From Patellaria atrata CBS 101060 (lineage: Eukaryota): a stretch of DNA of 42,119 bases. A program made the position numbers and the translations under genes. Below the pieces are notes generated by a model. It saw only the letters and a program-made list of their open reading frames with translations, was not told where the DNA came from and ran no database searches. Numbering within the stretch: position 1 is the first letter of the stretch; the number at the start of each line of letters is the position of its first letter. This document shows positions 1 through 39,449 of this stretch, in pieces. The DNA is taken from contig MU006121.1 of the NCBI GenBank assembly GCA_010093705.1, positions 124,001 to 166,119 of the forward strand, read 5' to 3'.

Positions 1-2019
1 CTGTCTGCACCCTTCTACCGCTTCGGGATCGAACACGGATTCCTCGAGCATGCGACCAGTCTTACTGTAGCAACCATAAACCGCCCATGCGCCCTCTGCT
101 GTCTTCAGAGCTCGGCCTGCGGTAAGTCGATGAATGCGCAAGTGCCAGCAGTCACTAGCTTCCGTCGGTGGCACTAGCCAGGTTTTAACGTCGACGTCAG
201 GCCAAGGTTTCATACTGCTGACGAGCACAGGGACGCCTTCCAGCGTCTCGATATCACTGTCACCGTCGAGGGCGCGACGCATCTTCCATATCTCGCCGTC
301 GTCGTCGGAGAGCGCGAGCGAGGACTCGGGCACAAACTGTTCCAGCGTATAAGAACCGGTAGGGACCGAGTACGCGAAGGCAGAGGAATAGGAAAATTTG
401 CCATATTTAGCTTGCGTCGCCTTGAGAGGGTAATGGCAGCTTTGGCCGGAGGAAAGGAGGAATGTGTGTCCACCGCCAGCGCCACGGCACATGATGTGGC
501 GTGGATGTGGTAATGGACGGATTATGGGCAGGTGGAAGAGAGGATAAGGCTCCTCGTCTACCGTCCAGAAGGGGTGTGTGGGTGGTAGAGCTAGCGGAGC
601 AAAGGCGAGCATACTCCAGTACGGTGAACCAGGGGAGTTGTAATTTTCCGCAAGGTAGGTATTTGGGTATGTGTATCCAATAGAGAGCATACCATTTGAA
701 TGGAAAATATCGGGATGCTTGCTCCACCACCTCAAATTACGCAACCAGATACCCTTAACAACGCCCCAGCTGAGGGGTTCGGGTAGCTCGAGATCTGCAA
801 ATGCCACAGCAGCCCAAAATCCAACCATGGCGAAGCGATACGTTAAGCTCCGACCGAATGTTATTGCACGACCCTCGGGATCCCAATAATGCACGAAATC
901 TAGAGCGTACTTTTTGGCACGGTCTCTATATTCCGACGCTTGTTCAGGGTCGGAATCCGCCGCGAGTGTTGCATAGAGAAGTTGCAAATACTGGATTGCA
1001 AAGGAACCGGAATAATAGTCCATCTGGCGGTAGCCTTCAGGGCCATCGTTTGACCACCCATCGCCGCGGTAGAAGGTATTTAGTTGTTTGATATCGGCAT
1101 TTAGACGATCTTGTGAGAAGGCGGCTCCCTGTTTCTTTAGTCCGAGATTGGCGAATACACGGAACCATAGCCTGAAATATTAGCAATAAGTGAGTAGACG
1201 GGATAAGATTAGAATTGCAATGATGATTTCGTCAGGAAGGCAATTCACGGCTGAACGAGGAATATGAAGCATAAGCATATATGAGGAAAAATGTGTAAGA
1301 TCAAATCACCAATATTGATTCGCAAGACAGTAAATTCTGTTGATTTTGAGGTCTGAAGTACGACAGACAAATCTCTGGTGACGGTGTACATGACTCTTAG
1401 ACGAAAGTCTAAGTGTCTCTAGCTTTCTTTCAATCATGGCGACTCAAGTGAGAACGATTAGATATGGGGGGAACATGAAGTGAAATGTGTATGATAGATA
1501 TTACGTCAAGACACGTAGTTGCACTTACCAGTTAGTGTTGGGCATCTCTTTATCGTTCATACTCCCGAGCCACGTCTCTATGTTATCTTTCTGTTTCTGT
1601 GTCAAAGGGTCCCAGAACTCATGGCCTGCTATAGCGAGCGTGTATCCGATTGGACATGCTTCTACCATCCTTTGATCGATATCTTCCATGTAGCCCCAGA
1701 ATTCCGGACTTTCAGGATCAGTGCCGTTGACCAAGCCATTAACAAATCTCTGAGTGCCGGAATACTTGCTTCCTCCAGCAAGTAGAGGCGCGAGACCCCA
1801 GAGAGGACGAGCATATCCTTCAACCTGGGCTGCAGTTTCATCGAACCTAGTACCTGTACCGGAGACCTTCACAAGAGCTCCTCCGGAGGAAGTACCGCCG
1901 GCGAGGGGATCGAGTAATGAGGCGACTGCATCAACAACATTATCACGGGTCCGTAGAGGATTTTTGCAGAAAGGATGGAGTGGAAATGGGCGGTTAGCGC
2001 TCGCAGCCGCTGCTGTCAT
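1..2019 (-). CDS. DUF2264-family protein (GH154-like putative beta-glucuronidase), 3' end runs off the window; exons 2019-1529 and 1171-<1
   Basis: Exon 1 has [22 protein letters not shown] and DQRMVE, ending NTNW. After a GTAAGT..GCTAAT..CAG intron (1528-1172) the frame continues [59 protein letters not shown]. These are typical DUF2264 motifs. No signal peptide is evident. Confidence 0.9.
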
Positions 2020-3997
2020 GGCTTGTTTTTTTTTTTTTATATAGCCGTACTGGTTGTCCAGAAAGGCAGAACTGGGATTAAAAAATAATAATTAAGGGAC
2101 TAAAATCCAGAAGCAAGGCCGTCAACAATTCCCTTTTCACTTTGTTCGTTTTGTCGTTGGAGCAGGACCAAAGAACAGTCCCATGAAAGCTTCCACGACT
2201 AGAAAACGATCTTCTTTAAGCACTTTCGGAAGACAAGACGGAACTTTTCTTTTGGTTTGATAGGTAATGCGGCACCGTTACAAGAATTTGAATCTGGATA
2301 GTAGTAGGATTGCTTAAGTCTGTAGTTGTGGGATGTTCCACTTTGGAAAGATGGTGGTGAAGTCAACACCGACTCACAGACCGAGAGGGGAAATTCTGGA
2401 ACCTTTCGCGCCGTTCTTCTGGAAGGTTTGTTGAATTCAGGCGTGAATTGATCTCCATAGTGACTTTGGGCATGGCACCCCGTTGGTCGTTTCCGGGTAA
2501 ATGCATGATTGACGGAGGAATTTATGGGCCTGCAGGCTACTTGTGGGTGTACTGGTAGAAATCGTAGAACTAGAGTAGATCCATCGTCGCCACGCCTTCG
2601 CTAAGGTGCAACTATATGAATGTAATAATGACAATAGGAGCATCAGAGCTTCTAGAAAACGGTGGCAAAGGAAAAGGACACATGACTGAGGTGCAAGTTG
2701 AACCAGATAAAGAAAAGTCCAGAGTAGTACGCGTGAATCATGCAACACTGCAGTTGATTAGACTTGACGGGTAGCGTAGGAGAGATATGACAGGAGAGAT
2801 TCGAATTCATGGAATATAAAGTCCAGCGAATATACTTTTAAGTTTGTTCTTTTCCAGCCTCTTCAACTCCTTCATACCTTAGTTTTGTGGAGAGGAGGTC
2901 CAAAGGGTCCTTGGTCGTAGAATTTCTTCCCCAGAATTTCTGTTGATAAGGTGGCTTGCGGGATTGCGGCACTTTGGCCCACAATGGTTTAGCACTCAAC
3001 ACTAAAACTAGCTATAAACAGAACAAGTTAGATTGTAAAACAGTAACTGATGATTATTAAGAATGGAACGTACAGTACAATAGCCTTTCGTATTTGTTAC
3101 TATAGTTCTACTCTACCTGGTTCTAGTTCTATTGTATACATGGTTCGTACTGGTTAGATCTAGTATCCAGATATCGCTGCAGCACATTACAGTAGTGACG
3201 AGTCGGGCACTGTACAGTACAAGTAGATATACAAGTACTGTACAGATAGTTCTAATCGACGGTTAAAAGCAAGGGTAAAATATGCCACCACCACGAGAGC
3301 CGAAGACCTCATCAGAGTTAGAAAGGTCTACAAGCAAAGAAGCAGCCGGTAAACCGATCATAATCTGAGCATCTTTCTTTCCCCCTCACTACTCTGTACT
3401 ACTTTTACTGCTGTAAGAGTTGGATTTACTACTGTACATATCAAAGTGTTGGAGAGTAATTGGAAAGAGATCAGCCTCTCTGCCGTCTCTCACAAATCAA
3501 AACCCAGTCACCCCTCAAACCACACCCCCCCGGCCTCCTTGTAGAAGTGGTAGTAGCCGGCACTCAGAGGCAAATAAAGGTGATGAACACCATGATCACC
3601 CATGAAGAGCATGGAAGACTTTCCATCAAGAGTTAAACCTCATCGAGATACTTTAGATTGCCGTTGTCCACTTACCGACTTGGCATGTCAAGGTTCGCTA
3701 TTTTCCCACAAATGACATGCATCTATCCGTCTGCAAACTGACTAGAAATCAACATGCTGCCCAGTACATATCTGTTCCACCGGGTCGCTGGAAAGTGGAA
3801 ACCGTCTTGATAAACATGATAAACTGACCACCTCCCAGAGGCCCTGGTTGATAGTTATATTCTGTCTTTTGCTAGAGTCAACCAGTGTACGGTACAGCAG
3901 ACCAGCTGTCTTTCATTAATTTGCCCCCAACTTGTTCGACTCCTTCACCTTTCCATTCCACGTTGCTGCTACCTCCATCGAGGAACTAGCTGTCAAG

Positions 3998-5955
3998 ATG
4001 CCTGCTGGAGCTGGAGCGAGATTCCTCCAGAGAATTGTTAAAAATGATGCCATGAAAAGTGATCCTCCAGAGATCTATGGATGGAGGTCTTTTGCGATAG
4101 CATGTTCAGCATGCTTCGGTGGTATGCTCTTCGGTATGGATGTCGGTATCATCGGCGGTGTGCTGATTCTGCCTGCCTTCAAGCAGTGAGTACCCTCCAA
4201 CGATTCTTTTCCAACATAGTATATCACGCAATCGCCTGATAGTAAGGCCGTCTGACCTTCATGGTGAATGACACGCGTGGACAACCATACTGGGCTAGAG
4301 ATCTTATGGTACACTGTATGCTCACAAGTGATCAGGGATTATGGACTTCAAGGCTTGAATGACACTGCTCTGGCCGATCTCCAGGCAAATATCGTCTCAA
4401 CTCTGCAAGCTGGATGTTTTGTCGGAGCACTCTTCGCGTCTTGGGTTGCAGACAAGATAGGCCGCCGCATGTGCCTGATCTATGCCGCTCTTATCACTTG
4501 TATAGGATGTATCTTCCAAGCCGCTGGTGAGGGTGAAATCGCCGTCATGTACATTGGCCGGTAAGTAATAGACATCCGGAAATCACTCTAACCGAGCTTA
4601 TTTGATATATCAAGCTTGATTGCCGGTCTTGGTGTCGGTGCTGCGTCTATGGTCGTACCCCTTTACGTCTCTGAGAATGCTCCTCGTGCCATTCGCGGCG
4701 GATTGACTGGGCTTTACCAGCTATTCATCGCGACTGGAGTCATGCTTGCCTTCTGGATCAACTACGGTAGTCTTCGTCATCTCAATGGCAATGCTACTTA
4801 CAGTAAGCGGATTCGCAATGAGTGCCACTTGTAATATCAAGGCTAACCAAGTGACAGTCGTACCCTTAGCTTGCCAGGCCATCCCCGCTGTGTGCCTTCT
4901 TGTCGGTATGTACTTCTGCAACGAGTCGCCCCGTTGGCTCGCGAAAGCAGATCGATGGGAGGATGCCACTCGCGAATTGGCTAAAGTTCGTCATCTCCCA
5001 CCAACTCACCCTTACATTAAGGATGAAATCTCCGAGATCAACGCACAGCTGGAGCATGAGCGCATGTTGATCGGTGGCGCCAGTGTCATGGACCTGCAAA
5101 GGGAGATGTGGAAAATTCCCGGGAACCGAAAGAGAGCTATCATCTCTATTACTTTGATGATTTGTCAACAGATGACGGGAACCAATGCGAGTAAGTAGAA
5201 TCCTAAGCTTGGGTGATACCCATGGGATATTACTGATCAGGAGGTTAGTCAACTATTACGCTCCGCTGATCTTCCAACAACTCGGTATCGCTAAGGCTGA
5301 TACGGGCCTTTTCGCCACCGGCCTGTATGGAGTCGTCAAAATGATTACTTGCGCAGGATTTCTACTCTTCGCCGCTGATAGTTTGGGAAGACGACGATCA
5401 CTTCTCTGGACCAGCATCGCCCAGGGTTGCTCCATGTTCTATGTCGGCTTGTACGTGCGAATTCAACCTCCAGTAGCTGGGCAAGCTGTCCCTCCGGCGG
5501 GATACTTCGCCCTCGTCTGCATCTTCCTCTTCGCTGGTTTCTTTCAGTTCGGCTGGGGCCCTGTCTGCTGGATCTACGTTTCCGAAATCCCAACTGCACG
5601 TCTTCGATCTCAAAATGTCGCTCTTGCCGCGGCTACGCAGTGGCTATTCAACTTTGTTGTCGCCCGCGCGACACCAAACATGCTTAAGACGGTCGGAAAG
5701 GCTGGATACGGCGCATTCCTGATCTACGGCTCATTCTGTTTCTCCATGTTTATCTTCGTATGGTTCTTTATTCCTGAGACCAAAGGTCTTTCCCTCGAGA
5801 AGATGGATGACCTCTTCGGTGTTACGGAGCTCGTCAAGAAGGTCGAGGAAGAAGAAGGCATTTCCACCCCTACCCGTGAGATCTCCATCGACGGTAAGGC
5901 TATTTCAAGCCACGTTGAGACTGCGCCAGTTGCGGAAAAGGATATCAAGCAATAG
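3998..5955 (+). CDS. gatA: MFS sugar-porter transporter, quinate permease/D-galacturonate transporter (GAT-1/GatA) clade; exons 3998-4185, 4336-4560, 4615-4802, 4858-5190, 5249-5955
   Basis: The spliced frame is continuous through four GT-AG introns. Sugar-porter motifs: [45 protein letters not shown]. The N-terminus [18 protein letters not shown] and [17 protein letters not shown] resemble Neurospora GAT-1 as I recall it. Confidence 0.88.
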
Positions 5956-6392
5956 GATATCTCAGTATAAAGCATAAACCACCCATTCTGGCGATAGAAA
6001 GGAGTGGATAGTCTAATAATACTGTAGTTTTTGTTAATGCAAACGTTCAACAACTTGCTCCCTGATGTGTGACCGTCAATCTGCAGCCCGTATTTCCTGA
6101 CCATCTTACTCTTGTGTCTATATCGCCGGCTGAAAGCGAACCGGCCCGACCTTTCAGGTGCTGTATTCTGTTTCTGTGTACAGAGTATTATTTATATGCT
6201 TTTGGACGAAGGTACGTTTTTATGTCCTTCAGACTTAATCCATGGCATCCGCGGAACGACTTCGGCGATGACGAAAAGCTTGAATCCTTGATATCCGAGG
6301 TCTGACAATATTTCGAGCTTGGAACTACTGCACTGCTTTGGTACGAACTTCGACAGTAACATGTTCGTCGAGTTCTATTACTTACCTCCCTA

Positions 6393-7482
6393 ATGTCTTC
6401 AAACTCTGGTGACGATGTGAGTCTGGCATGTATTCAGTTGAGCTTACCAGCTGTAAAAGTATTTTAACTACATCACCTAGGCCCTCAACAACACTCCCCC
6501 TTTAGTATCACTCCTTGCGGGAGCTATTGCCGGAGGTATAGAAGCAGGGTCAACAGTCTGTATCACACATGAATAGCATAGGAAGAATATTTAATTGAAA
6601 TCTCCAGTACCCCTTCGAATTCGCTAAAACCCGTGTTCAACTACGTCAGGAATTCGGCGTACCAACCCCCAGGACCCCGTTTGCGGTTATCCCCCAAGTG
6701 ATTCGAGATGAAGGTCTACGTGCCATCTATAGAGGCTGTCCCCCACTAGTGATAGTATGCAACTTTGGACTAATATTTTCCATTCCGAACACTGTTAATC
6801 AAAAAGTCACTAGGGCTCCCTCGCCAAAGATGGCATTCGTTTTCTCTCTTTCGATACTATCAAACAGTCCTTCTCTGATCCGGAGACTGGCACGCTCTCA
6901 CCGTTGCGCAACCTTCTGGCTGGTATGTCAGCCGGCGTCGTAGCCTCCATATGTGCCGTGACACCAACCGAACGCATCAAAACCGCACTCATTGACGACG
7001 CCAGACACGCTCGCCGGTTCCGCTCCTCATGGCACGCTATCCGGCTCATATACGCTGAGGACGGCTTTTTGGGCCTCTACCGTGGATTCGCAGGTACAAC
7101 GCTGAAACAGGCATCCGCGACCGCCTTCCGGATGGGGACGTACAACATCTTGAAAGACTTTGAGCGCACACGGGATATCGAACAGTCCACTGCAGTTAAT
7201 TTCGTTAATGGAAGCGTGGCCGGCATCGTGACGACATATGCCACGCAGCCCTTTGATTGCCTAAAAACACGCAGCCAGAGTGCCTCGAGAACGACGACGG
7301 TGGAAGCGTTCAAGAGTATTTTGGCAGATTATGGGATTAAAGGGTTCTGGAAAGGGACGACGATGCGGCTGAGTAGGACGGTGTTTTCCGGGGGTATCCT
7401 TTTCATATGCTATGAACAGAGCGTGAAGATTTTGAACCCGTTGTTCGGTGTTGTCAAAGGAAAAGTCTTTGAGGAGACATAA
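6393..7482 (+). CDS. Mitochondrial carrier (SLC25), CTP1/tricarboxylate-carrier-like paralog; exons 6393-6416, 6481-6555, 6608-6754, 6814-7482
   Basis: Three Px[DE]xxK signatures (YPFEFAKTR, TPTERIKTA, QPFDCLKTR), plus LAGAIAGGIEA and FWKGTTMRLSR..SGGILF. The introns are GT-AG and keep the frame. Confidence 0.9.
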
Positions 7483-7614
7483 GTTGGGCGAAATGCGAAA
7501 CTATGGGATAACAATAGCACCATCGTGGTTGCACTAGTAGCAACCACCTTCTGGATACCTTAGATCGTAGCTTCATCTCTCGGTCGTACCTTCAACTACG
7601 ACGAGCAGAGCACG

Positions 7615-8511
7615 CTAACCTTTACTCTTCATCTGTTGATTTACCAATGTGATCTGGCTCCCCAACTCGGCAATCGTATTCCTTCTGCCAAGTGCGTCTG
7701 AGCCGTCCTGAACTTCTGAGGATCCATCATTGTCAGTCTTCTCCCTCGGCACAGCATCTTCCCCTTCTAGAATGGTGATTTCATCGTCATCCTTTGCCTC
7801 AGTTTTAAGGTGACCGACAATGCCACACGTTCTGCCGAATAGGAAGGTAATCGTTGTTTCTATGTCCTCCTTCAGTCCGCTTTGAAGTAACACTTTGCAC
7901 CCCGGTTTCTCCATGTCTTTGCACCCCTCTATCCCGTACGCGACGATGCTAGCTTCCCACATATTGCGGGTCTTGGGCATGGAGGCGTTAGAATCGATGC
8001 GGGCTTTTGCAAAGAGCCCTTTTGGGGATGAAGGTAGTGCAACTGTTACGCTCCGGCCGGCAACTACGAGATCGATGCTCTGCCCGGGCTGACAGTGCCA
8101 GATCAGATTCGCGTTCGCGAGGATCTGGTCCCGATAGAAGGAGAGCTTGAGCATGTGGCCGGGGATGGAAGACTCGAAAGTTGTGTACATGCGTGCGGCC
8201 TGGCAAATAAGGCGGTGTGGAAATGTATCGCCTCGGTGATAGGAGATATGTATCGTAGAGTGTTATGTTGGTGTTACCCAGCGGAGTTGCTGACACTGGC
8301 CGTCCTGCACAGGATCATGTTCCCGGACTGTAAAATAATTACACGGTACAGGTCCAGTGGAATCTGATATAGGTCCAGCAGAGAAGGTCTGGGGATGGAC
8401 GCCGCCAGGTAGTAGTCGAGTCCAGTTGTTGGGGGTGAGGTAAGGTATGTAGATGGTAAGATGGTTGTCCTTTCTTGTGGGTGCTGGTATTGTGAAGGAC
8501 GAATGGCGCAT
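7615..8511 (-). CDS. Hypothetical protein; probable exons 8511-8278 and 8199-7615
   Basis: A 191-aa ORF can be joined in phase to an upstream ORF (MRHSSFTIP...QQLRW) by a GTAACA..CAG intron at 8277-8200. No recognisable domain, and the branch site is weak. Confidence 0.45.
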
Positions 8512-9365
8512 CTTGGCGAGTCCAAAATGTATCCGTACGGTACAATACTGTACTCGACAGAGCCTCAAGTCTTGTATCATAAAATTCACAAAGAAAATCC
8601 CTACCGCACTTTACAGATACGGTAAGGTAGTAGATGTCGCGTGCCTACTTACCTTGAAGGGGTTCCGACACCATCAGCCCGGGCTCTTGATGTACGAACG
8701 TTTTTTGTTCCGTCTTGGATACTGTAAGGCGTGCCTAGAAAGCTCAAAGCGAAGGTAAGGTAGAGACTTGGATGTTACCAAAGGAGAAAATACGCAGGGG
8801 ATAGTCCGTAATTGTCGGGTTTGCTACATTAAGCCTGCCAGAGTCCAAGTTGGAAGCTGATGTGAGATGCAACTCGTGGTATTGGCAGCGCGCGTAATGC
8901 AACAAGAATCCAATGATAACATGATCTACTATGTCTCTGGAATTCTGTTTGATCTACCCTTTGGGACGCTTAATCTGCCGTATACAATCGTGATGATGTT
9001 TTCCTCCTTTTATGAACCATGAACTAACTGATCTGATACCTCCTGAGAAGAAACGCAAGCATCTATGAGTACACTAATTCTACCTAGGATGATAGATCCT
9101 GACTACCAGGAGATTGTCCTAGAAATGTATCGTGCTCTTCATCTGCTAGTATCTGGCTTTAATGTATGAGAGCCGCAAACACTGGCGCGCTATAGCATAT
9201 GTACATCTCAAGGGTCAAGCTCGCCGAGTCACTTTCGCGGCACCAGAGATATCAGAGACGCAACCTTACACAAATAGTTATTTTTGTTTTTCGAATGCTC
9301 CGTAGTCCGAACATGCACTACTGACTGTCGCAGGAGGTAGATTCAAAGATACTAAGGAGACCATA

Positions 9366-26200: not shown

Positions 26201-26349
26201 TACAATGTGGAGGAAGATATATCTCTCGTCACATTCTTCGGCTGGTGGATTGAAGAGATTTGCAGTTCCCTCTGACATTCGATCTCCTTCAAATTGCATC
26301 TAAGATAACTCTTTTTTCGTTTTTAAAGGTTGACCTCGGTCGAAATCCA

Positions 26350-27975
26350 ATGTGGTCGTATATCTCCCAGCTCTTTAACAAGTTTTTTCGGTCAGATGAA
26401 CGCTCCAAAAAGCCGAAAGTAGACAAGCCGGCCACTATCGAAGGGATAACTGGCAATCAGTTTCCGAAAGGCACTCAAGCATACCAGAATAACAAGTATC
26501 AATATGCGTCATCAACGTATGAGCTGGACCACAATATGAACCCAGGACTGATAATCCAACCCAGGAACAAGGCCGACATTAAGCTCACGGTCAAGTATGC
26601 GAAGTCGAAGAATATCGCTGTTGCGGTTAGAACAGGAGGCCACCAGTATAGTGGTGCATCATCGACTTCGGCTCCCAATATTCTTCTTGATCTGAAGAAA
26701 ACATTCCAGGGCCCCGAGGACCGAACGGTTTTCGAAAAGGACGGTAAAAGTTTCGTTCGTACTAGCGTTAGCTGGAGCCTCGGAGATTTCAATGCATATC
26801 TCACAAAACACCACTTATTTGTTCCCCATGGACAGTGTACTTCGGTTCACCTCGGAGGACATGTTCAAACAGGAGGGTACGGCCAATTAGGACGCAGTTT
26901 CGGACTTTTTGGAGATCATGTGCTGTCCATCGAGTTGATAGACCATAACGGCATGGAGAAAGAGGTAACGAAGCAGACTGATCCCGACCTTTTCTACGCA
27001 ATCCTTGGGGGGAGTCCTGGAAATCTGGGTGTTATCACCCATTTCACCATTGAGGTGCATCGCGACAATGACCACCAAGGTTCACGGGGGTTAAAAGCAC
27101 TTTACTGGTATGACCCCAAGACCCTAAAGCGTCTCATCGATATCCTCGTAGAAATGTCCGATGATGAAAACTTCCCTCGCAATTATGACTTTTGCATCAG
27201 CGTGCTCAGTTCCTCCTTCAAGCTCCTGGATCTGTGGCCCGAATTGGACGGAAGAATGAGAGAAGAACATCCGGAGATTTATGGAGAGAATAGTATTCCA
27301 TTCTGGCCCCGAACTATCGTGGTGTACGCACAGTGGGTTCCATTCGAGAAGAACGATGTCTGTAATATGGACTGGTTCAACCGCATTAGGAAGGGCTCCA
27401 TCTTCAACCAGGGTGTGGAAGAGAAGCCAATGTCAAAGCTCACTGGAGACTGGATATTTCGAAATGTGCGCGAATTTGAGCACCCGTACGTCAAGCGCAC
27501 ATACTTGACGAACTCAACCACTCTTGGTAGGGATGGTTGGGCGGACTGGGTGACTAAACGTATCGATGCAATCGTCAAACCGGAAGCGAACCGCTGCTGG
27601 CTGTCTGCCCAACTCCAATGTTACGGTGGTAAGTACTCCAAATTCACTACCAACGCTGGTAACGGTACTGCCTTTAGCTGGCGGGATTCGACACTCATCG
27701 CCACCCTCGATTGCTTCCATGAGAACTCTGCAAAATCTCGAGCTGAAGACTGGCAAAAGGTCAATGATGCGGAGGGTATCGGCCCTAACGGGATCTTCAG
27801 TAAGCAGGACCGTCGTGTACTCTGGGGTTCGTACGGCAGCTATGATCTTGATGCGAGTTGGGCGTACTATTACGAGAACCGAGAGAAATATGAAAAGCTC
27901 CGGCAAGCAAGACAATTAGCTGATCCTAATGGTGTCTTTACGTATAACTCGTTTTGTGTAAAACGGTCCGGTTGA
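26350..27975 (+). CDS. FAD-linked oxidoreductase, berberine-bridge-enzyme/VAO fold (AA7-like), intronless, 541 aa
   Basis: AVAVRTGGHQY (FAD His), VPHGQCTSVHLGGHVQTGGYG (Cys), DLFYAILGGSPGNLGVIT and a C-terminal YEKL..ARQLADPNGVF BBE motif. The first ATG is at 26350. Confidence 0.9.
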   Translation: MWSYISQLFNKFFRSDERSKKPKVDKPATIEGITGNQFPKGTQAYQNNKYQYASSTYELDHNMNPGLIIQPRNKADIKLTVKYAKSKNIAVAVRTGGHQYSGASSTSAPNILLDLKKTFQGPEDRTVFEKDGKSFVRTSVSWSLGDFNAYLTKHHLFVPHGQCTSVHLGGHVQTGGYGQLGRSFGLFGDHVLSIELIDHNGMEKEVTKQTDPDLFYAILGGSPGNLGVITHFTIEVHRDNDHQGSRGLKALYWYDPKTLKRLIDILVEMSDDENFPRNYDFCISVLSSSFKLLDLWPELDGRMREEHPEIYGENSIPFWPRTIVVYAQWVPFEKNDVCNMDWFNRIRKGSIFNQGVEEKPMSKLTGDWIFRNVREFEHPYVKRTYLTNSTTLGRDGWADWVTKRIDAIVKPEANRCWLSAQLQCYGGKYSKFTTNAGNGTAFSWRDSTLIATLDCFHENSAKSRAEDWQKVNDAEGIGPNGIFSKQDRRVLWGSYGSYDLDASWAYYYENREKYEKLRQARQLADPNGVFTYNSFCVKRSG

Positions 27976-28532
27976 AAATGTTGAAAGTTTTTCGCATCGT
28001 TGTTCATCTGCGAACCTGTCCTTGTGACCGTTTCTTAGAGAGATGTCTAATCTGTGAGTTACTTATACAATATCCACTAGAATCAAGATGCTACTTTAAA
28101 CTCTGAAGGAAGCCTGCGGATACGATATCCTGTCGTCAGCTTTCTGTTATCAATCATCACATAGTACATATCTGGTAATGGTCTAGTCGCCTCAATGTAG
28201 TCCAGTTTTTAAGAAAAGAACCCCTCTCCGAGTCCCTGGACTCATTCCAAAGGTTTGAACTCCCTTAGAGGAACTTCCGTAGCCGCAACCCAAGTTGTAC
28301 GATATGACATACAGGAAGAACAGTCTCACACATGTGTCACGCAGCACCCACAGTTCTCATATGTGACTCGTCTCATCCATTGGCTATTTCTCATTCCGCT
28401 TACTGCCAAACCATGTAAGGCTTGATGCCTATATGATCAAGCTACCATGATATACGTAAAAACCTTTTCTAACTCCATCCAATTTCAAGAACTCAACATA
28501 TGTCGAAACACAAAATCCAGACAACATATTAC

Positions 28533-29113
28533 CTATTCCTCAGCGACACATTGATAATAGAACTCTGTGATTTCGGATTAGCGATAACATCTGACCTAGC
28601 AACGGTTTGGTGTAACTTACCATTCTGAGTCTTACAATAGGAGCCCTTTTCACATGTCTTGCATCCTGTCCAGGTGGCACCACCGCATTGATAATATAAG
28701 GGAACAGGGCATTTTGAGCTGGTCGGTCCGACCTCTCCGCCTGTGCTTGTCTTACTTGAAGTGGTTGAGGTTTTAAGGGTAGTGGATGTGGGTGGGTAAT
28801 AAGGTTTTGAGGTGGAAGTAGAACTTTTCTGAGTACTTGTACTTGTTGTGGTCTTCTTAGTGCTGGTTGTCACGGGCTCCGGTGTAGATGTTGAACGCGA
28901 AAGCCAGCTTATAGACGGGATATAAGTCTTCGTAATTGTAGGCTTGGTTATTGTAGGATCAAAAACTTGACGTCTTCCTGCTTCGTTGACTGGGTCCGCC
29001 GCCTATTGCAGATTAGCATACATGGATGGGAATATGATGTTAAGAGAACACACCAGTATCTTTCCAGATAAGAGAAGAGTAAGAGAAATGAAATGGTATG
29101 TGTCGAATCTCAT
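28533..29113 (-). CDS. Small secreted protein: signal peptide + Thr/Ser linker + single CBM1, no catalytic domain; exons 29113-29054, 29002-28621, 28564-28533
   Basis: Spliced product MRFDTYHFISLTLLLSGKILAADPV...(T/S-rich)...VPLYYQCGGATWTGCKTCEKGSYCKTQNEFYYQCVAEE. Both introns have GT, a CTAAT branch site and AG. Confidence 0.85.
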
Positions 29114-30331
29114 CTTGGAAGGATATGTGTTGGGCAGATGGGATAGAAAGCGTTCAATTAGGCGCGGTCTCCTGGGTAGCTTTCTAAGGAGCAGATGCTG
29201 TCGCTTTTTATATTCTGCTGATGCCAGAAGTGGGGTTCTATGCTGATAATATCCCATATGTTTTGGACGTAACTGCCGCATTAGCCTCCCGCACAAGCAA
29301 AAGTTCGTCTGAGAATCTCACTATTGTGGCTTAAATACTCTAGAGAGTGACGGTGCTGTGTGGTAAAGAACTCTGATCTAGATCGATTCTCCTTGGTGCA
29401 ATGCCACTAATATCAACTTTGATCGGCCCGTTAACCCTGGGCACAGTGACGGTCATTGATCTGATACTCGACCTTCCTCTTCTTGATCAAGATCAATGTG
29501 GTGATTTGAACCGCTTTCGGTCCATCTGGAGCCAGAAACGAGGATACAAGCGAATACTATCGTCTCCTGCCGTTATTTCTCGGTTGTCAGTCTATAATTG
29601 GCATCTAGAATAAAATCATAATCAATTACAGGACTTAAAAATACATGATACTTAATATACATTTCAGATACGAGAATCTGTGGACCATAAGTAATGGATC
29701 TATGGCTGGGTCATATATATAGTGTTCCAGGGATCCATAGTACATGGCCCACGTTCTAGTGCAAATCTAGAAGTGGGTTGGTAGTACGGTTACTGGCAGC
29801 GTCTGTCAAAAGATGCAATCAATTAAAATATATTCTGGATATTTTCGCTTAGGCTGAAGTCGTTATCTTACCTGCATATGTAGTAACAAGTCTCGCACAC
29901 TACCTCCAGAAGTCAAGCTCCGATGAGTTGACCGTCTTCGCAAGCGATATAGATCTAGAGCAAATCTAGAGGTAATGACATCAAGCTGGTGGTAATTTGG
30001 CCTCGTAAATCGCGTCAGACGTGGATAAGTCTTGGACTGATGATTGATTAACTGAATAGAGCTTTCATAGAGGAATTGTAGGAAAACAGGGGAATTGATA
30101 GATGTACAATTCCCGGGGAAAAGGATTTACCAGGAAGGTGACCTTGGTCCACTCCTTCGGTATCAAACATCGAGTGTCTCATGCCCGACTGATCGGTCTA
30201 TGGAAGGGAGTAGAAGGGTCGATGGGTCACCAATCATAGTCAATCCGCTGCTGTATACTGTAAGGGTATAAATGTGGATTATGGTACGTCGACAATGGAT
30301 AACATCTTTGTAAACATTACCTCGAAGCTCT

Positions 30332-30733
30332 TTACGTAGTGATTTTTGGAATAACCGCACACTTTGCAACTCGCTCTTCCTTAAGCGACTCTCTTATGCG
30401 CCTCTTCGATGCGCGTGTTCTTTGACTCCTCCCTCTTGTATGAGCGGCTCTCTTGTGCATGCTGAATTTTGTGTCTCTTCCTATCTTCTTCGTGGCCCTC
30501 CCCTGCAGGTTGGTGAATCGCTCGATCGAAGGGTTGCATGCCTTGTAGTGGCTCTTCACGGTGCTCTGCATGGGGTCGCATGCTAAACAATTTAGCGTCT
30601 CTTTTGGGCATTTCACACGTGGTCCACTATATCTCACCCTGCTAAATTTAACAGGAGTTGCGGTGATAACAATTGTAAGTAGATGGAGACAGAACAGTAT
30701 CAAGCCACTGCCCAGAACCGGTACATAGCTCAA
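30332..30733 (-). pseudogene. Possible degenerate small secreted protein gene
   Basis: Hydrophobic signal-like segment and an intron-like GTGAGA..CTAAAT..TAG. There is no in-frame ATG, and splicing gives an early stop. Confidence 0.2.
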
Positions 30734-30906
30734 ATTTGCATATTGAATATGAAGTTAAAACAAATGTAATACATCAGCTATCACTTTGAACAAGCCGGCA
30801 CTACCAGCTCCCAATCATCCTGAGATCAATGCCCTGTTATTTGACCATCAAGCCCTCGTTGAACAGCAGGAGATTCGGGTGCAGCTAAGACTATCAGCTG
30901 TCAGAG

Positions 30907-31647
<741 letters not shown>

Positions 31648-31749
31648 TGTAGAACTTGAAGATCTCGAGTTGACAATGATCAACACGTCGAATCGGGGAG
31701 TGAAGCCTGTATCTTTATACCTAATTTTCAAGATGACAATCTCTCATAA

Positions 31750-32170
31750 TCTCTCCGGGAGTCATTACGGCTATTTCCATTGTCGATGGAGGGACTCCCT
31801 AGCGACTATCAATAACCGTTAAATAAATTTAAGTTAGATGGGGGTCACGCTCACGTATGACCGCCATACACAAAGTGAGTGAGTTAGAAAGAGACACACC
31901 CGGAGATCCGCAGGGCCATTCACGCTCGGAAATTTCGTAGTGACGTTATGGTTTCGGAAGAATAGACCGAGGTGTGAAACAGTTGTCCCAATTTCAACCC
32001 CACAGTTACTCTATCTCCAAGATCTTTAAAGATCTCCAAGCTCTCCAAGATTTCCTAGTTCTGCATAATGACTAGGATTCCCCAAGATTCCAAGATTCCC
32101 CAAGATTAAGCACCCCAGGATTTCCACATGTCATCAATTCAGGCTGAATTGAATTATTGCGGGGGGTCAA
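31750..32170. promoter_or_regulatory. Xylanase upstream region with about five CreA-type SYGGRG sites and repeated CCAAGAT
   Basis: CTCCGG ~31753, CCGGAG ~31900, CCCCAC ~31998, CCCCAG ~32113 and GCGGGG ~32159. A TATA-like TATAAA lies on the minus strand at ~31714-31719. Confidence 0.4.
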
Positions 32171-32480
32171 GGTTTAATTAAGTCAGGTAATGAGCGGAAA
32201 AATTATAGTAGTAAGTAACGGTACCATATGAGGTTGTTTGGGTTGGGTTGGTAGTGGGTTAGGCAACTGGTAGGTTTATCTCAGACACTTTGCTAGGTTT
32301 ATCCTGCGTGACGCTAGTACCTATAGTTATGTATCTGAACGCCACACATCATACCTTAATCGGTAAGGTAAGGTAGATACTTTAACGCCACACACTGCAA
32401 CACTAAGGTACTCCCTGGCGTGCCTGGGTACCTTATACAACCGAACAGACTGAGGTGTACCTACACTGATATCAGTTGTC

Positions 32481-33577
32481 ATGGCTTCGCAAGAACAAGA
32501 ATATTCAGTGGATCAAGAAATCGCTGAATTTTTCCTGAAAACGACCGCGACTCGATTAGCTTGCGACACACGCGCAGAAGAACCCGTTGGAGGCAATAAA
32601 ATACCGTACAAGACGTGTGTAGCTACACCGGTATGGTGTGGGCCTGACAGCGAATTCGTTGTTCAATTTCGTCTCAAATCCTTGGAGCTGAAATCAGAGA
32701 CTGCCAGTCTCGCTCACACAATCTATGGTCTTTGGCACCCGACATTTCCTTCAGAGGCCAGCTTGGGGAGAGTACCGATGGAAAGGAAGCAATCTTCATC
32801 AATGTTATGGGTCGTGTACAAGGCATCAGCCATCTGGACTTCATCCTCGCGCACAATCTACCGGAAAATTCATCCAAATATTGCATTTGGCGGAACAATC
32901 TAATTGTCGACGTCGCGAGGTGAGTGCATTCAACGTCACACACATTTCTATCGAAGGTTAACTTAGCATCTTCAGGTTTTTTGCTTCTCCATGAAAGGCT
33001 CCTCGGCGTGTTGAGCAAACCTACCGGCAGAAACTTGGCCGCCGATACCAACATAAGTTACAGCTACTGCGAGATTCTCTCCCAGTTCGGTTCCATCCCA
33101 TATTCGAAAACGCGCTCGATTCGATACCTATTATCCTTTCCCTCCCAATGACATTACTCCATAAGGATTTTGGTGCATACAACATTATGGTCGATAGCAG
33201 CACATGTCATCTTGTCTGTGTAATCGACTGGGCAGAATCCGAGATTTATCCCTTCGGTCTCAACCTACACTCTCTACAGCCGATACTTAATAAATATAAC
33301 CTCAGAGATGGATGGATCAGATATGCTGATTACGACGGTTTGCAGAGACCTTGTGGGACACGTTCTGCAAGGAGGTCGGAAATCTGGATAATGAAACAAT
33401 CCAGCCCATCAACTCCGCCAGGATTGTCGGCCTGTTACTCTCACACAGATTTTCCAGTTGTCTTGAAACATGCCGGAGCCACCACCTATCCGAGATGACG
33501 AGAGCGGCGCCTATGAGATGCGAGGTCTTTATGGATTGCTGATCAAGGCGGCCACTAAGATAATGGATTCAGGGTAA
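32481..33577 (+). pseudogene. APH/choline-kinase-like (protein kinase-like fold) phosphotransferase pseudogene; intron 32920-32975
   Basis: EFVVQFR, catalytic LLHKDFGAYNIMVD and VIDWAE.EIYPFG. It has several frameshifts (~32605, ~32730, ~33350, ~33465) and a premature TGA at 32992. Confidence 0.85.
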
Positions 33578-33647
33578 TTAGGAGTTAAACATGTCAGAAC
33601 GACGGAGGGGATAAAGATCTGGAACTGTGCTTGGACAATGATTCAAT

Positions 33648-34320
33648 ATTAGAAACGCGAGTCCAATAAGGGCTAGCTGAGATCCCCGATGTTCTGCAGC
33701 TTCGGGCGCGGCTCGCTCGCAATGAAGACCTTATGATTCTCGGTGGTCATTTTCGCATGTTTCTCGTTAGACATCTAAACTCGCGGTTTTCCATCGACAG
33801 AAATCAAATCTCTAACCATTGAGGTGGGTCGGAACTGTTTCTTTTGACAACCACAGAATCCACCGTCATAGTTCTGTGCTCAAGAAGGAGCTTAGACATA
33901 GGTATGCTTCTACATCGCAAGGATCTGAAGACTGATAAGGGTTGTGAGTTTAAGCTTTCCGAGATAGTCCATGGCAGTTCGCAAGAATCCCTCGCAGACG
34001 GACGGCATGTCGGGCATGGGCCCGTCCTGGAATTCATATGCGCATAGCTCGCCATAGATGTCATAGATGAGGACGAAGATATGCCTATGTATATTGTCAG
34101 GATCAATTTTTCTTATATCGGTACAACGAATGGTAGGATTGTCAATGTTGGACCTGAGTATGACAGTTTTCTCCGGTATCTCGAACTGTCTATGGGTAAG
34201 GCGAATTCCGAAGCCGTTCTCCGCATTATGGCGGACGTGTCAGACGTGAGGGTGCTGAATAATCAAGATAATCGCTTGATTTCTATCTATCTACTGAAGG
34301 AACCTCCATATATACTGAAG
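33648..34320 (-). pseudogene. Pseudogene of a fungal hypothetical protein, convergent with the APH-like pseudogene
   Basis: The minus frame reads FGIRLTHRQFEIPEKTVIL..DNIHRHIFVL..AYEFQDGPMPD..LISLQIL*, shifts to MSKLLLEHRTMTVDSVVVK, then reads DGKPRV*MSNEKHAKMTTENHKVF. This resembles a recurrent fungal hypothetical family as I recall it. Confidence 0.55.
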
Positions 34321-34483
34321 AGGTACAGAGAACACGTATCCAAATTTTAATATAGCTAATAGTTGTTGAGATATCTGTTGAGATAGTAGAGTCGTGTGAG
34401 GACTAAACAGATATCGAAAACAGATAACTTTTGAAGATAGACTTTTAGTGCTACATACTACTCCGTGGCTGACAACGACCGAA

Positions 34484-34587
34484 CGTCCAGGTCACGTGAC
34501 CCATGGTCACTCGTTCCTGTTCGCAGTTCTCCCAATTGGTTCCCCTCTACCACAGTCTGCGTTCCTTTACAACTTGTGGCCGTAACA
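34484..34587 (-). mobile_element. Partial copy A of the LTR/TIR-like repeat
   Basis: GTCACGTGACC...TTACAACTTGTGGCCGTAACA matches the end of copy B in direct orientation and the start of copy C in inverted orientation. Confidence 0.65.
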
Positions 34588-34607
34588 ATCGTAACATCCA
34601 ATCTAGA

Positions 34608-34920
34608 TGGTAAGAAGAACTAAGAAGAGTTTAAATACATGCGTAAAGGAGCGTCCTTAAGTATACCATCTCCGAGCCCTGTTCTAAGTACTTGGACGTG
34701 CTAGCTGTGCTGGCCGTTCTGGACCTCCAACGTCCACTGCGTCCACCGCGTCCATACCCTCTGGACGTGTTGGACATTTTGGACGTAACACTCCTCTACG
34801 TCCATTGCGTCCACGTCACGTGACCCTCGTGTCACTGCTTTTCCTCCATGGTTATACCCAGTGGTCTCTTTCCTCCTCTCACTCGTCAACTGCATGTCCT
34901 TACAACTTGTGCCTATAATA
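34608..34920 (-). mobile_element. Copy B of a ~310-330 bp repeat (solo LTR or long TIR), left arm
   Basis: Aligns end to end with the reverse complement of 37252-37583. Shared blocks include AAAGGAGCGTCCTTAAGTAT, TCTCCGAG, TGGCCGTTCT, TGCGTCCACCGCGTC, TGGACGTGTTGGA and CACGTGACC..CGTGTCACTG. Confidence 0.8.
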
Positions 34921-35202
34921 GGATATTAAATGCTCATATATAAGATCCTAGGTATAATGACCGGAATTCAAGATCGGTATTTCAATTGTGGGGATATAGA
35001 TATCGGGACTGAGACTCGGCTTCTATATAACTTCTCTTGTTTAGAATATGCTAGCTTAGGAGCGAGAAACAATTGTTCCTAGGATATGGTCGAGATGTCA
35101 ATATAAGAGATAGATTCCACTATCAATACTTTCCTAATTCCATCGACACATTCATTCGTGCAATCCGCCCTTTTTTTTTTTCATTCATTCACAAACTGCA
35201 TA

Positions 35203-36057
35203 ATGAAGCTGAATATCGCCGCCCTTCTTTTTGCCTCGACGCTCTTTGCAGAGGGACTCGCTGCAACGCCTGGTTGTGGTAAACAACCTTCGAAAATCAA
35301 AGCAGGCGTTAACACCGTAACTGTTAATGGGAAATCTCGGCAATGGATCCTTACTTTACCTGATAACTACGATAATACGATACCTTATCGACTGATCTTC
35401 GGTGTCCATTGGCTAGGCGGTAATATGAATGATGTTGCGAATGGGGGCATGATTAACCCTTACTACGGTCTTCCTTCTCTTGTTAATGGATCTGCTATCT
35501 TCGTAGCTCCGAATGGGCTTGAAAATGGCGGCTACTCTGGATGGGCAAATACCAATGGCGAAGACATCGCATTCATTCAAGAGATCTTGAAGGCAACCAA
35601 TGATGACCTTTGTATCAACGAAAAACTAAGATTCTCCATGGGATTCAGCTACGGAGCTGCGATGTCGTACTCCATCGCATGTACTCTCCCCAATGACTTT
35701 CGTGCTGTCGCAGCTTTGTCCGGAGGCCCTATCAGTGGATGCGTAGGAGGAACAAGTCCTGTTGCATACTATGGTCAGCACGGTATCAGCGACCAAACTC
35801 TACCGATTGCTATGGGACGCCAGATGCGGGATAGGTTTGCTACCAACAATGGTTGCACGACCCGAGAGGCAAAGGAACCTGTTGTAGGGAGCAAAACACA
35901 TATTGTGACGAAGTATGAGGGATGTATGGAAGATAAACCGGTGTGGTGGACGGCGTTTGACGGCGATCATACGCCTATCCCGACGGATACGGGTTCGAAT
36001 AAGGACACGACGTATACTGGGGCAGCAGTTTGGGAATTCTTTTCGCAATTCAAGTAG
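35203..36057 (+). CDS. Secreted CE1 feruloyl esterase (FaeC/FaeD-like), intronless, 284 aa
   Basis: Signal peptide, TPGCGK, YRLIFGVHW.GG, AIFVAPNG, GWANTNGED, nucleophile GFSYGAAMS, HGISD and FDGDH.P, ending W.FFSQF. Confidence 0.92.
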   Translation: MKLNIAALLFASTLFAEGLAATPGCGKQPSKIKAGVNTVTVNGKSRQWILTLPDNYDNTIPYRLIFGVHWLGGNMNDVANGGMINPYYGLPSLVNGSAIFVAPNGLENGGYSGWANTNGEDIAFIQEILKATNDDLCINEKLRFSMGFSYGAAMSYSIACTLPNDFRAVAALSGGPISGCVGGTSPVAYYGQHGISDQTLPIAMGRQMRDRFATNNGCTTREAKEPVVGSKTHIVTKYEGCMEDKPVWWTAFDGDHTPIPTDTGSNKDTTYTGAAVWEFFSQFK

Positions 36058-37943: not shown

Positions 37944-39449
37944 ATGGCGGTAACTCCGCCATTATCGCCTTCAATTGCTGTTACAAAGACATCACGCCTT
38001 GAAGGTTGGATCCAGCAGCTCCCGGAGTACACTCTTTCGTCCCTATCGACTCCCAATGCAGACCGCTCATCACTAAAACGGACACGTCCAACCTCCTCCC
38101 CACCCTACACCTCTACGATGTCGACCCGCACGGGTAGTCCTAAGCGCCCGAGATGCGATAGCGACATCGAAGTTCTACCTTCCCATAGCGTATCGGCAGC
38201 CGGAGCGGCCTCGAATACGAGCGCGTTGCTACTCAATGAAAGGAATACCTTCAGTCCACCTGATAGCCAAGCCGGCGCCAGAAGCCCTCGCCGAACGAAC
38301 AGCCCATCGCGCGATAATATCACCGTACTCGCTTCTGCGTCACCTTCGACGATAATGGAACCGAGCTCAGGGTTGAAAGCACCACCACCGCGGAGGGTAA
38401 GGGATGTCATGGAGCGGCTAGAGGACGGGCTAGACAGAGGTTGGATACCCGGCTTGTTACGGGACTTGATCGAGGAAGACCGAGACTTTGGATACCAGAG
38501 ATTTGAGCGTCATGCTTGGAGCGAGACGGCAGCAAGTAACTTCTCGCAGCCGGGTGCTGACCGGGAGGAGTGCGATAGCCTAGCATACATGCTGCGGAAG
38601 GTGAAGAAGATCTGGCTGAACGCGCGAATGTGTCAGTTAAGAGGTCGCGATGAGAACGCGTGGTGTATGGACGTTATCTAGCCACTGGTGAAGCTCGCGA
38701 TGAGGCTTGAAGGTGACGATAAATTCTGGCTTCAGAGTGTGTAAGTAACCCTTCCCTTCGTTGGTATAACGTAGTTCTGATCTTCGAGCAGACAATCCCA
38801 GGCCATCTCCTGCGAATTCCTCTCCTGCGTTCCCACCGCATCTGGTAAACCTCGTCTTCTCGATTGCAAAGCGGACTTCACACTTTCCTTCTCACATATG
38901 GCATCCCCAGGTTTCAAAGACCTTTACAGCCGCCTAAGAACCGCGGGTAATCCCGTCGTAAGCCATATGGCGGACGCATTTACGAAGACGACCGCGCTCT
39001 TCTCCTGCGTGGAGGTAAAACCCGCCAGTGGCGATTATACTGAAGCAGCATATCAACTTAGCATATGGATAGCAGCAAGCATACGGAAGAAGATGCAGCT
39101 CGCGCGGCAGGTGGGACAGGCAGATAAGAGTAGACTGGTGGAGCCCTGCTTTGCCATCGTCGGACACGAGACTCATGTTTACTTTGCCTACATGGCATCA
39201 GAAGAGAGGGAAACGGTGCATATCCTTGGACCGGAGGTTGGTCCCTTGGGTTTCTGCGAGACAAGGAGTTTGAGTGGTATCTTTCGAACGCTGAGGCTTT
39301 GGCGGAATGTGATTAGGTATGGGAGGGATGAGGGTAGTGAGGGTTTCTGGGGTGGTTTCATAGGTCCCGTCTTGCAGAAACTCACTGGAGACAATGATGA
39401 AGCAGATGGAGCAACTCTTATTTCTACACCCCCCCTAGCCATTGGATGA
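37944..39449 (+). pseudogene. Fungal PD-(D/E)XK nuclease-like gene with a single premature stop; exons 37944-38740, 38792-39449
   Basis: Disordered Ser/Pro-rich N-terminus, then GRDENAWCMDVI*PL (TAG 38679-38681). After a GTAAGT..CTGAT..CAG intron it reads KADFTL, VEVKPASG, AAYQLSIWIAA and IVGH, matching the D..ExK..Q pattern. Confidence 0.8.

Follow-up and report, generated by a model that had tools for sequence, protein, structure and literature searches.

A GH154 enzyme gene paired with a GAT-1-type transporter gene in Patellaria atrata and other fungi: a possible route for D-glucuronate use

Deletion of gat-1 (NCU00988) in N. crassa abolishes the uptake of both glucuronate and galacturonate, and the clade-1 transporter GAT1 of T. 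reesei (Trire2_106330) has Km values of 0.008 mM for glucuronate and 0.155 mM for galacturonate, a difference of approximately 20-fold; clade-1 transporters have been characterized on monomers only, and A. niger is without one (PMC3933009, PMC8290022, PMC6265301). Proton-coupled uptake of galacturonate and glucuronate has been shown for GAT-1 orthologues. In N. crassa, galacturonate is imported mainly through gat-1, which is under PDR-2; the neighbors of gat-1 are a P450 gene and a barely expressed hypothetical gene. In A. niger, glucuronate is degraded by a route via GluC that is not impaired by deletion of gaaC, and a review of fungal uronate catabolism mentions direct galacturonate dehydratases for two bacteria only (PMC6353982, PMC4870679). 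According to the accessible text of a 2025 report, enzymes of family GH154, including BT3677, are glucuronate 4,5-dehydratases that act on terminal glucuronate; the two-domain BT3677 dehydrates methyl beta-glucuronide but not chondrosine, both substrates shown for the family are glycosides, and that text describes neither free glucuronate nor 4-O-methylglucuronate as a substrate (PMC12269599). Our search of mostly non-subscription literature found nothing linking GH154 to a fungal transporter or uronic acid cluster, or tying transporters of the GAT-1 clade to a GH154 gene; some fungal papers, including Aspergillus papers, name GH154 merely in lists of families.

We analyzed a stretch of 42,119 nucleotides of contig MU006121.1 from Patellaria atrata CBS 101060 (hereafter, the window), which contains three intact genes of interest, encoding a GH154 enzyme (PF10022 and PF20938), a sugar porter (PF00083) and a mitochondrial carrier (PF00153). 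The DUF2264 and DUF2264_C (GH154) gene, encoding a predicted cytosolic uronate 4,5-dehydratase of 653 aa, covers positions 1 to 2019 on the minus strand and runs past the window edge: its first exon extends from the ATG at 2019 to 1529, a GT-AG intron of 357 nt occupies 1528 to 1172, and the second exon begins at 1171 and ends 299 bases left of the window. The reading frame contains no internal stop and is the same as that of the database protein P0121 (653 aa). The sugar porter gene (546 aa; positions 3998 to 5955, plus strand) has five exons (3998–4185, 4336–4560, 4615–4802, 4858–5190 and 5249–5955) separated by four GT-AG introns. It is followed on the same strand by the carrier gene (positions 6393 to 7482; 304 aa, identical to P0001), a second CTP1-like paralogue and probably a bystander, with exons at 6393–6416, 6481–6555, 6608–6754 and 6814–7482. 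The distance between the ATGs of the enzyme and transporter genes was 1978 bp, and that from the transporter stop to the carrier ATG was 437 bp, in agreement with the preliminary description, which placed the first two genes head-to-head across approximately 2 kb and the carrier start approximately 440 bp past the transporter stop. Two DNA-like public runs, from which the assembly may have been built, span positions 1 to 9000 in one piece with zero differences. The genes to the left, a direction to which that description had also pointed, are an orphan coiled-coil gene, DNA polymerase kappa and FKBP; because these neighbors are housekeeping genes, the gene group has no leftward extension, and a cluster extending in that direction was ruled out.

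Judged by its sequence, the transporter is an orthologue of GAT-1 (clade 1), and neither a GatA (clade 2) protein nor a quinate permease, with its activity in Patellaria putative. A hand count over the N-terminal part only gave 78 of 134 columns identical to GAT-1 (58%), compared with the 39% identity between GAT-1 and quinate permease given in the GAT-1 literature. Full-length identity was 64–66% to Sordariales proteins bearing the first-helix motif of GAT-1 itself, and the next paralogues in the genome showed 36–43% on their best segments. The GAT-1 part of the earlier label "GAT-1/GatA-like" and the exclusion of quinate permeases were thus upheld, and the GatA part was not.

The best sequence match of the enzyme was PDB 8OI4 (E = 1.8e-32), with PF10022 above its cut-off, and one orthologue is annotated as CAZyme family GH154 in the database. 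In a fold search, the top matches were the GH154 structures 8OI4, 9O4U and 9NWF, followed by lyases of PL35, PL12, PL17, PL33 and PL8; among the matches listed, no title named a glycoside hydrolase besides the GH154 entry. Like BcGDH (9O4U, 9NWF), BT3677 and BD-beta-Gal (8OI4), the enzyme has a DUF2264 catalytic domain, with an extra C-terminal domain as in BT3677; it differs from them in being fungal, in lacking a signal peptide and in being only approximately 25% identical. By alignment, E67, R71, N163, W164, F167, Y217, R271, Y275 and Y341 correspond to E74, R78, N177, W178, F181, Y229, R285, Y289 and Y354 of BcGDH, such that nine of the ten active-site residues probed by mutation, including both catalytic tyrosines, are kept, and the tenth (N176 of BcGDH) is Thr, as in 8OI4. 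These nine residues were invariant in all 42 fungal homologues. A hydrophobic N-terminus was absent from the enzyme and from all 72 full-length homologues in a simple hydropathy test, consistent with the cytosolic location proposed previously. Because dehydration of terminal glucuronate is the activity shown for GH154, BT3677 included, and the catalytic residues are retained here, a 4,5-dehydratase function is more probable than beta-glucuronidase activity, and we hold with considerable confidence that the enzyme acts by elimination rather than hydrolysis. The beta-glucuronidase assignment of the preliminary description would accordingly be outdated, as far as the accessible text shows (PMC12269599).

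The enzyme and transporter genes were numbered consecutively, by accession or locus tag, in 10 of the 15 species of Dothideomycetes and Eurotiomycetes with numbers for both, and lay on contigs of equal length, and thus apparently on the same contig, in 16 of the 21 species present in both homologue lists. In Elsinoe batatas, the two copies are widely separated by locus tag. Adjacent copies were also found in three independent environmental fungal loci, head-to-head in two (L057 and L058/L059) and in tandem in the third (L080). The pairing exceeds chance; the same was not demonstrated for the position of the carrier. The earlier claim of a conserved, uronate-related enzyme–transporter pair is borne out by this linkage, and the two genes very probably form a functional pair. 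The characterized GH154 genes belong to a PUL that also holds GH88 and lyase genes, whereas the gene here is paired with that of a predicted uronate proton symporter.

The divergent promoter region common to the pair (positions 2020 to 3997) is 1978 bp long, compared with 1508 bp in L057 and 1351 bp in L059; repeats within it are unremarkable in appearance. It contains an 11-base element, CGGNTAAATGC, at positions 2494 to 2504 on the plus strand, 475 bp upstream of the enzyme ATG, which includes CGGNTAAW, a sequence that we take to be the XlnR-type core. The element was present upstream of the enzyme gene, in identical orientation relative to it, in all four loci (the window, L057, L059 and, out of sample, L080, where 0.0012 occurrences were expected). 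It was not enriched in the genome (8 occurrences, versus 11 for the reversed control), 13 of 150 shuffles produced an 11-mer common to the three discovery loci, and none of its seven other genome matches had an evident uronate or xylan gene nearby. A second core at positions 3260 to 3267 (plus strand) is without the TGC extension, and no counterpart was seen in the other loci. Of seven patterns examined, the GaaR, CreA and GGCTAAA motifs were not consistently overrepresented across the three promoters, exact 8–10-mers common to all three were at chance level, and the upstream region of GH67 in the genome lacks a CGGNTAAW core. In N. crassa, an XLR-1 ChIP peak lies 1376 bp from the gat-1 ATG.

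Our favored reading, which we put forward tentatively, is that two genes of the locus work together to take up D-glucuronate and process it by elimination, and that the carrier beside them is unrelated. The proton symporter would import free D-glucuronate and also galacturonate, and possibly 4-O-methylglucuronate freed from xylan by GH67 and GH115. The enzyme would then eliminate water or methanol at C4 by a two-tyrosine mechanism, yielding a 4,5-unsaturated uronate that would open to 5-keto-4-deoxyuronate. A GaaA/Gar1-type reductase could reduce C1 of this compound, a step proposed for GaaA on chemical grounds, to give 2-keto-3-deoxy-L-galactonate, on which the aldolase GaaC acts and through which the galacturonate pathway would be entered. 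The proposed route resembles the A. niger GaaA-D route for galacturonate in ending at 2-keto-3-deoxy-L-galactonate and using GaaC and GaaD, but would dehydrate the aldouronate first, whereas the GaaA-D and GluC-type routes reduce first. The genome contains a divergent gaaA-like/gaaC-like pair, a GH67 gene and two GH115 loci, and no match to KduI was found in it. Weighing against this reading are the glycosidic substrates reported for GH154, the availability of a cytosolic GH105-like protein, the gaaC-independent glucuronate route of A. niger, the role of gat-1 in galacturonate import in N. crassa, the distant copies in Elsinoe batatas, and the genome-wide and shuffle counts for the 11-base element. 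That the substrate is the free monomer is, taken separately, held with the same caution. A broader claim, that a second glucuronate pathway in which dehydration comes first is present in many filamentous ascomycetes (import of glucuronate and 4-O-methylglucuronate by GAT-1, C4 elimination by GH154 and reduction to 2-keto-3-deoxy-L-galactonate), is rather speculative.

The principal alternative, which we consider less likely than the free monomer, retains the pair and the dehydratase chemistry but takes the substrate to be an imported glucuronide or glucuronate-capped di- or oligosaccharide, for example from arabinogalactan side chains, whose unsaturated residue would be removed by an unlinked GH105 or GH88 enzyme, as in Bacteroides. 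This mode of action is that shown for BcGDH, and the setting that of BT3677, in the accessible text of PMC12269599. GH88 occurs within 10 kb of DUF2264 in five of eight prokaryotic loci and in a second fungal DUF2264 clade (L097), and a cytosolic GH105-like protein encoded in the genome could supply the hydrolase step. However, this protein is paired with its own divergent allantoate-type transporter, and the characterized clade-1 transporters have been shown to act on monomers. Moreover, no unsaturated uronyl hydrolase gene was found near the pair in the window or in L002, L003, L057, L059 and L080; PF07470 genes of the genome are unlinked, on contigs C27 and C3; and UGL-type GH88 was found neither near the pair nor in the genome with two queries, run without a positive-control genome. 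A search of 88 prokaryote genomes gave matches only on fungal-type contigs in G001.

It is unlikely that the two-domain enzyme is instead an exo-acting oligo-uronate lyase, cutting a 1,4 link by elimination and freeing the unsaturated monomer without a hydrolase. The whole model does align over approximately 680–750 columns with the toroid-plus-beta-sandwich lyases of PL35, PL33, PL17, PL8 and PL15, and three of the eight prokaryotic loci have a hydroxyacid dehydrogenase and no GH88 (matches in the Patellaria genome to the rhizobial hydroxyacid dehydrogenase reach only 29–39%). Nevertheless, identity to these lyases is 9–13%, versus 24–26% to GH154, the transporter carries monomers on the evidence so far, and no GH154 lyase activity is reported in the accessible text of PMC12269599. 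Even less probable is genuine intracellular hydrolysis by the enzyme, whether as a beta-glucuronidase, the proposal of the preliminary description, or as a beta-galactosidase. The best match in both sequence and fold, 8OI4, bears the title beta-galactosidase, and earlier reports on BT3677 and BD-beta-Gal are cited in the same text; according to that text, however, clean BcGDH has no hydrolase activity, BT3677 is a dehydratase, and an acid/base–nucleophile pair is lacking in all of the structures, whose active-site residues the Patellaria enzyme matches (PMC12269599).

Similarly improbable is a single pathway of all three genes, in which the carrier would take a downstream keto-deoxy acid or other carboxylate into mitochondria. 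The carrier resembles the citrate carriers Ctp1/CtpA in its three carrier repeats and in basic residues at three contact points, which we placed by the presumed yeast positions. The protein does not fit the canonical Ctp1 citrate carrier: it has KQ at the second contact point, where we take RQ to be the canonical signature, and is 41% identical to a separate Ctp1 copy with canonical motifs on contig C8. Its subfamily has a binding-site signature of its own (K-D-[GA]-[VI]-R-F in 120 of 120 close homologues, of which 118 have KQ in place of RQ), which, together with the short gap in the window and the presence of the carrier on the contig of one of the paired genes in Lecanosticta and in two species of Phyllosticta, would suit a joint pathway. 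However, the carrier shared a contig with the transporter in only 2 of 11 species, there 79–113 accessions apart, and with the enzyme in one of seven, and gene shuffling within chromosomes is usual in Dothideomycetes. In addition, the 6 kb that follow the transporter gene in L058/L059 contain no carrier, none was found in G001 with the query used, and no CGGNTAAW site was found in the gap before the carrier. As none of the other genomes examined has the carrier next to the pair, microsynteny holds for the enzyme and transporter but not for the three genes, the previously claimed membership of the carrier in the cluster is not supported, and the carrier is in all likelihood a bystander.

Finally, that the linkage is inherited inertia, with a transporter that merely imports galacturonate and an enzyme with a separate role, is hardly credible: N. 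crassa does rely on GAT-1 in pectin use and no GH154 gene is evident next to it, and five of 15 species are non-consecutive by number, but the pair persists while every flanking gene differs between the window, L057 and L059, it outlasts a change of orientation, and each protein independently points to glucuronate.

Two annotations would be corrected by these results, namely that of fungal GH154 as beta-glucuronidase and that of the Patellaria transporter as quinate permease. Our survey hints that glucuronate use by a pair of importer and dehydratase is undescribed in fungi. If the monomer reading is true, the pair would represent a glucuronate route distinct from the one through GluC in A. 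niger, an outlet for 5-keto-4-deoxyuronate in a genome that yielded no KduI match, and a candidate for the fungal disposal of 4-O-methylglucuronate from hardwood xylan. If dehydration comes first, one step would demethylate the xylan side-chain sugar, feed it into the galacturonate pathway and generate the GaaR inducer. The pair would also provide a short route to engineer glucuronate use in yeast. The pairing suggests a function, open to experiment, for a widespread, uncharacterized family of fungal enzymes and connects that family to a well-studied transporter.

All three genes that the preliminary description had combined into one uronate cluster were present where it had placed them, and all were intact: an enzyme gene (DUF2264 and DUF2264_C, 653 aa; minus strand, 3' end 299 bases left of the window), a sugar porter gene (546 aa) to its right, head to head across 1978 bp, and, 437 bp beyond the porter, a mitochondrial carrier gene (6393–7482, 304 aa). 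The enzyme gene is a single match across the genome, and no leftward extension of the cluster was found, the 20 kb left of the window containing housekeeping or unrelated genes only. The enzyme gene's sole intron (1172–1528) has 357 nt, vs ~64 nt for the corresponding intron of the environmental fungal locus L057. In the deposited porter model (P0241; 4336–4615), four residues are missing towards the end of exon 2; they are regained when a canonical GT donor at 4561 is used. Some 20–30 kb rightward (26254–36057) lie an FAD-binding oxidase, a CBM1-bearing exon, a GH11 xylanase, a kinase-like fragment and a secreted esterase; at the contig end (40500–42119), beside a PD-(D/E)XK nuclease gene (38781–39449), GC falls to 13%, possibly in a decayed repeat.

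We compared the positions of the enzyme and transporter genes among the 21 species found in both top-120 match lists. The longest contig had the same length for both in 16 species; four of the five misses were multi-member clusters, whose representatives may stem from different assemblies, and in the fifth, Elsinoe batatas, the genes are far apart by locus tag. With accession or locus-tag numbers as a proxy for position, consecutive numbers were observed in 10 of the 15 species numbered for both (Lojkania, Glonium, Microthyrium, Myriangium, Lasiodiplodia theobromae, two Pyrenula, two Paecilomyces and Penicillium chrysogenum), five of the pairs having been picked since they were already on a common contig; the remaining distances were 4 (Lineolata), 14, 20, 36 and >5000. 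In Lineolata rhizophorae (P0206/P0310), three accession numbers separate the two, and intervening genes, if any, could name further pathway members. Five metagenome loci included three fungal ones (two of them 99.7% alike), and in all three the pair is head to head with 1.35–1.5 kb between and with different flanking genes at the DNA level. On L080, a more distant, intron-rich fungal contig (50% identity) in a bacterial bin, the pair is in tandem. This bin (G001), titled a bacterial metagenome-assembled genome, contains intron-rich fungal contigs (L080 and L097), and the protein from L080 clusters with one from Pyricularia. The enzyme and the transporter thus form a real, conserved two-gene module.

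The carrier was adjacent to the pair nowhere else examined, so that the proposed microsynteny applies to two of the three genes. Its membership was not borne out: it lay on the transporter's contig in 2 of 11 species and on that of the enzyme in 1 of 7. In Phyllosticta it lies 79–113 accessions from the transporter, and Vermiconidia and Elasticomyces, omitted from the tally, have locus tags likewise far apart. No carrier occurs within 6 kb downstream of the transporter in L058/L059; the L057 contig ends too early to judge. The gene is a second CTP1-like copy, 41% identical to the canonical one in this genome, with a subfamily signature of its own in 118–120 of 120 homologues (an invariant Asp next to the first contact lysine; KQ in place of RQ). 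Members of this subfamily (72–79% identity) are found widely among Dothideomycetes and lichen fungi; the name 'CtIP-endonuclease' given in the Atlas probably reflects a confusion of names.

Seven motif patterns were scanned in three intergenic regions. CGGNTAAW, whose core resembles the XlnR site, was present in all three, and the shared site extends to CGGNTAAATGC. Its sharing by these regions alone is weak evidence, because some common 11-mer also arose in 13 of 150 shuffles. The same element occurs in L080, 271 bp upstream of the enzyme gene in unchanged orientation (0.0012 expected). In N. crassa, a ChIP peak for XLR-1 is listed upstream of gat-1 (supplement, PMC7084071), and gat-1 is also reported as PDR-2-dependent.

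The transporter had been described as GAT-1/GatA-like. The GAT-1 part stood: Sordariales matches with GAT-1's own first-helix motif were 64–66% identical to the window transporter over the full length, and the other paralogues in the genome reached 36–43% on best segments. GatA is assigned to clade 2, and A. niger is described as having no clade 1 transporter (PMC3933009). Deletion of gat-1 is reported to abolish uptake of both glucuronate and galacturonate (PMC3933009); the T. reesei clade 1 gene, Trire2_106330 (primer table, PMC6265301), has a Km of 0.008 mM for glucuronate vs 0.155 mM for galacturonate (supplement, PMC8290022).

The enzyme had been considered a β-glucuronidase, although GH154, including BT3677, is reported as dehydratase. 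Among solved structures, 8OI4 and that of the glucuronate dehydratase BcGDH come closest to the enzyme. BcGDH is reported to have no hydrolase activity and to dehydrate terminal β-glucuronate to the 4,5-unsaturated form for GH88; BT3677 acts likewise on methyl β-glucuronide, and the activity is proposed for the whole family (PMC12269599). Nine of the ten residues mutated in BcGDH are identical in the enzyme, among them the arginine and the two tyrosines proposed as catalytic, and the tenth is Thr as in 8OI4; all ten positions were invariant in 42/42 fungal homologues. A fold search with the predicted structure (mean pLDDT 83.5; low-confidence loops 333–344, 412–417 and 435–442) placed GH154 on top and eliminating lyases next. 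The suggested lack of a signal peptide agrees with the absence of a hydrophobic N-terminal stretch in 72/72 full-length homologues. Four distant DUF2264 proteins (P0472, P0514, P0529 and P0561) are fusions whose other part is an isomerase-like TIM barrel, a GT2 domain or a piece of a 2-hydroxyacid dehydrogenase, and the first and last of these mirror neighbours in a rhizobial operon.

In eight loci of the closest two-domain prokaryotic relatives (36–42%), hand-picked among 234 plasmid records, the catalytic Y, R and Y are all retained, sugar importers adjoin in seven, GH88 is present in five and a hydroxyacid dehydrogenase in the other three. The bacterial dehydratase–hydrolase pairing recurs in a fungus: a second fungal DUF2264 clade (L097, G001:C225:10000–21045) lies beside a UGL-type GH88, a fungal transcription factor and an allantoate-family transporter. 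No GH88 was found near the window pair, or in the genome with two queries run without a positive control.

The simplest reading, which we advance tentatively, is that the substrate is a monomer, because GH88 was found neither nearby nor, with two queries, in the genome, the GH105-like gene has its own transporter, and the partner transporter is predicted to carry monomers. Glucuronate and galacturonate differ at C4 alone; therefore, after import of the monomer by the transporter, elimination at C4 by the enzyme would give 5-keto-4-deoxyuronate, whose C1 reduction could yield 2-keto-3-deoxy-L-galactonate, the GaaC substrate. This last compound is reported as the GaaR inducer (PMC6353982, PMC5153877). 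A gaaC-like aldolase gene is divergent from a gaaA-like reductase gene (L108, G000:C10:733410–737300), two further DHDPS-family genes lie on C20 and C7, GH67 and GH115 genes are present, and KduI had no match in the genome. Against the monomer, GH154 activity is reported on glycosides only in the accessible text of PMC12269599, A. niger uses GluC with gaaC dispensable for glucuronate (PMC4870679), and no GH154 neighbour of N. crassa gat-1 is evident in the available part of PMC7084071. Alternatively, an unlinked hydrolase might complete the route, a step that the cytosolic GH105-like protein could supply; its gene (L107:3450–7036, G000:C27) is head to head with its own allantoate-family transporter, an arrangement reminiscent of NCU02654 (GH105) and NCU02653, which are consecutive in N. 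crassa.

Our literature search, with most subscription papers outside its reach, found no earlier description of a conserved GH154–transporter pairing in fungi, and the fungal papers found, as far as their text was available, merely list the family. What appears to be new is the conserved fungal pairing; the chemistry and the transporter were already known.
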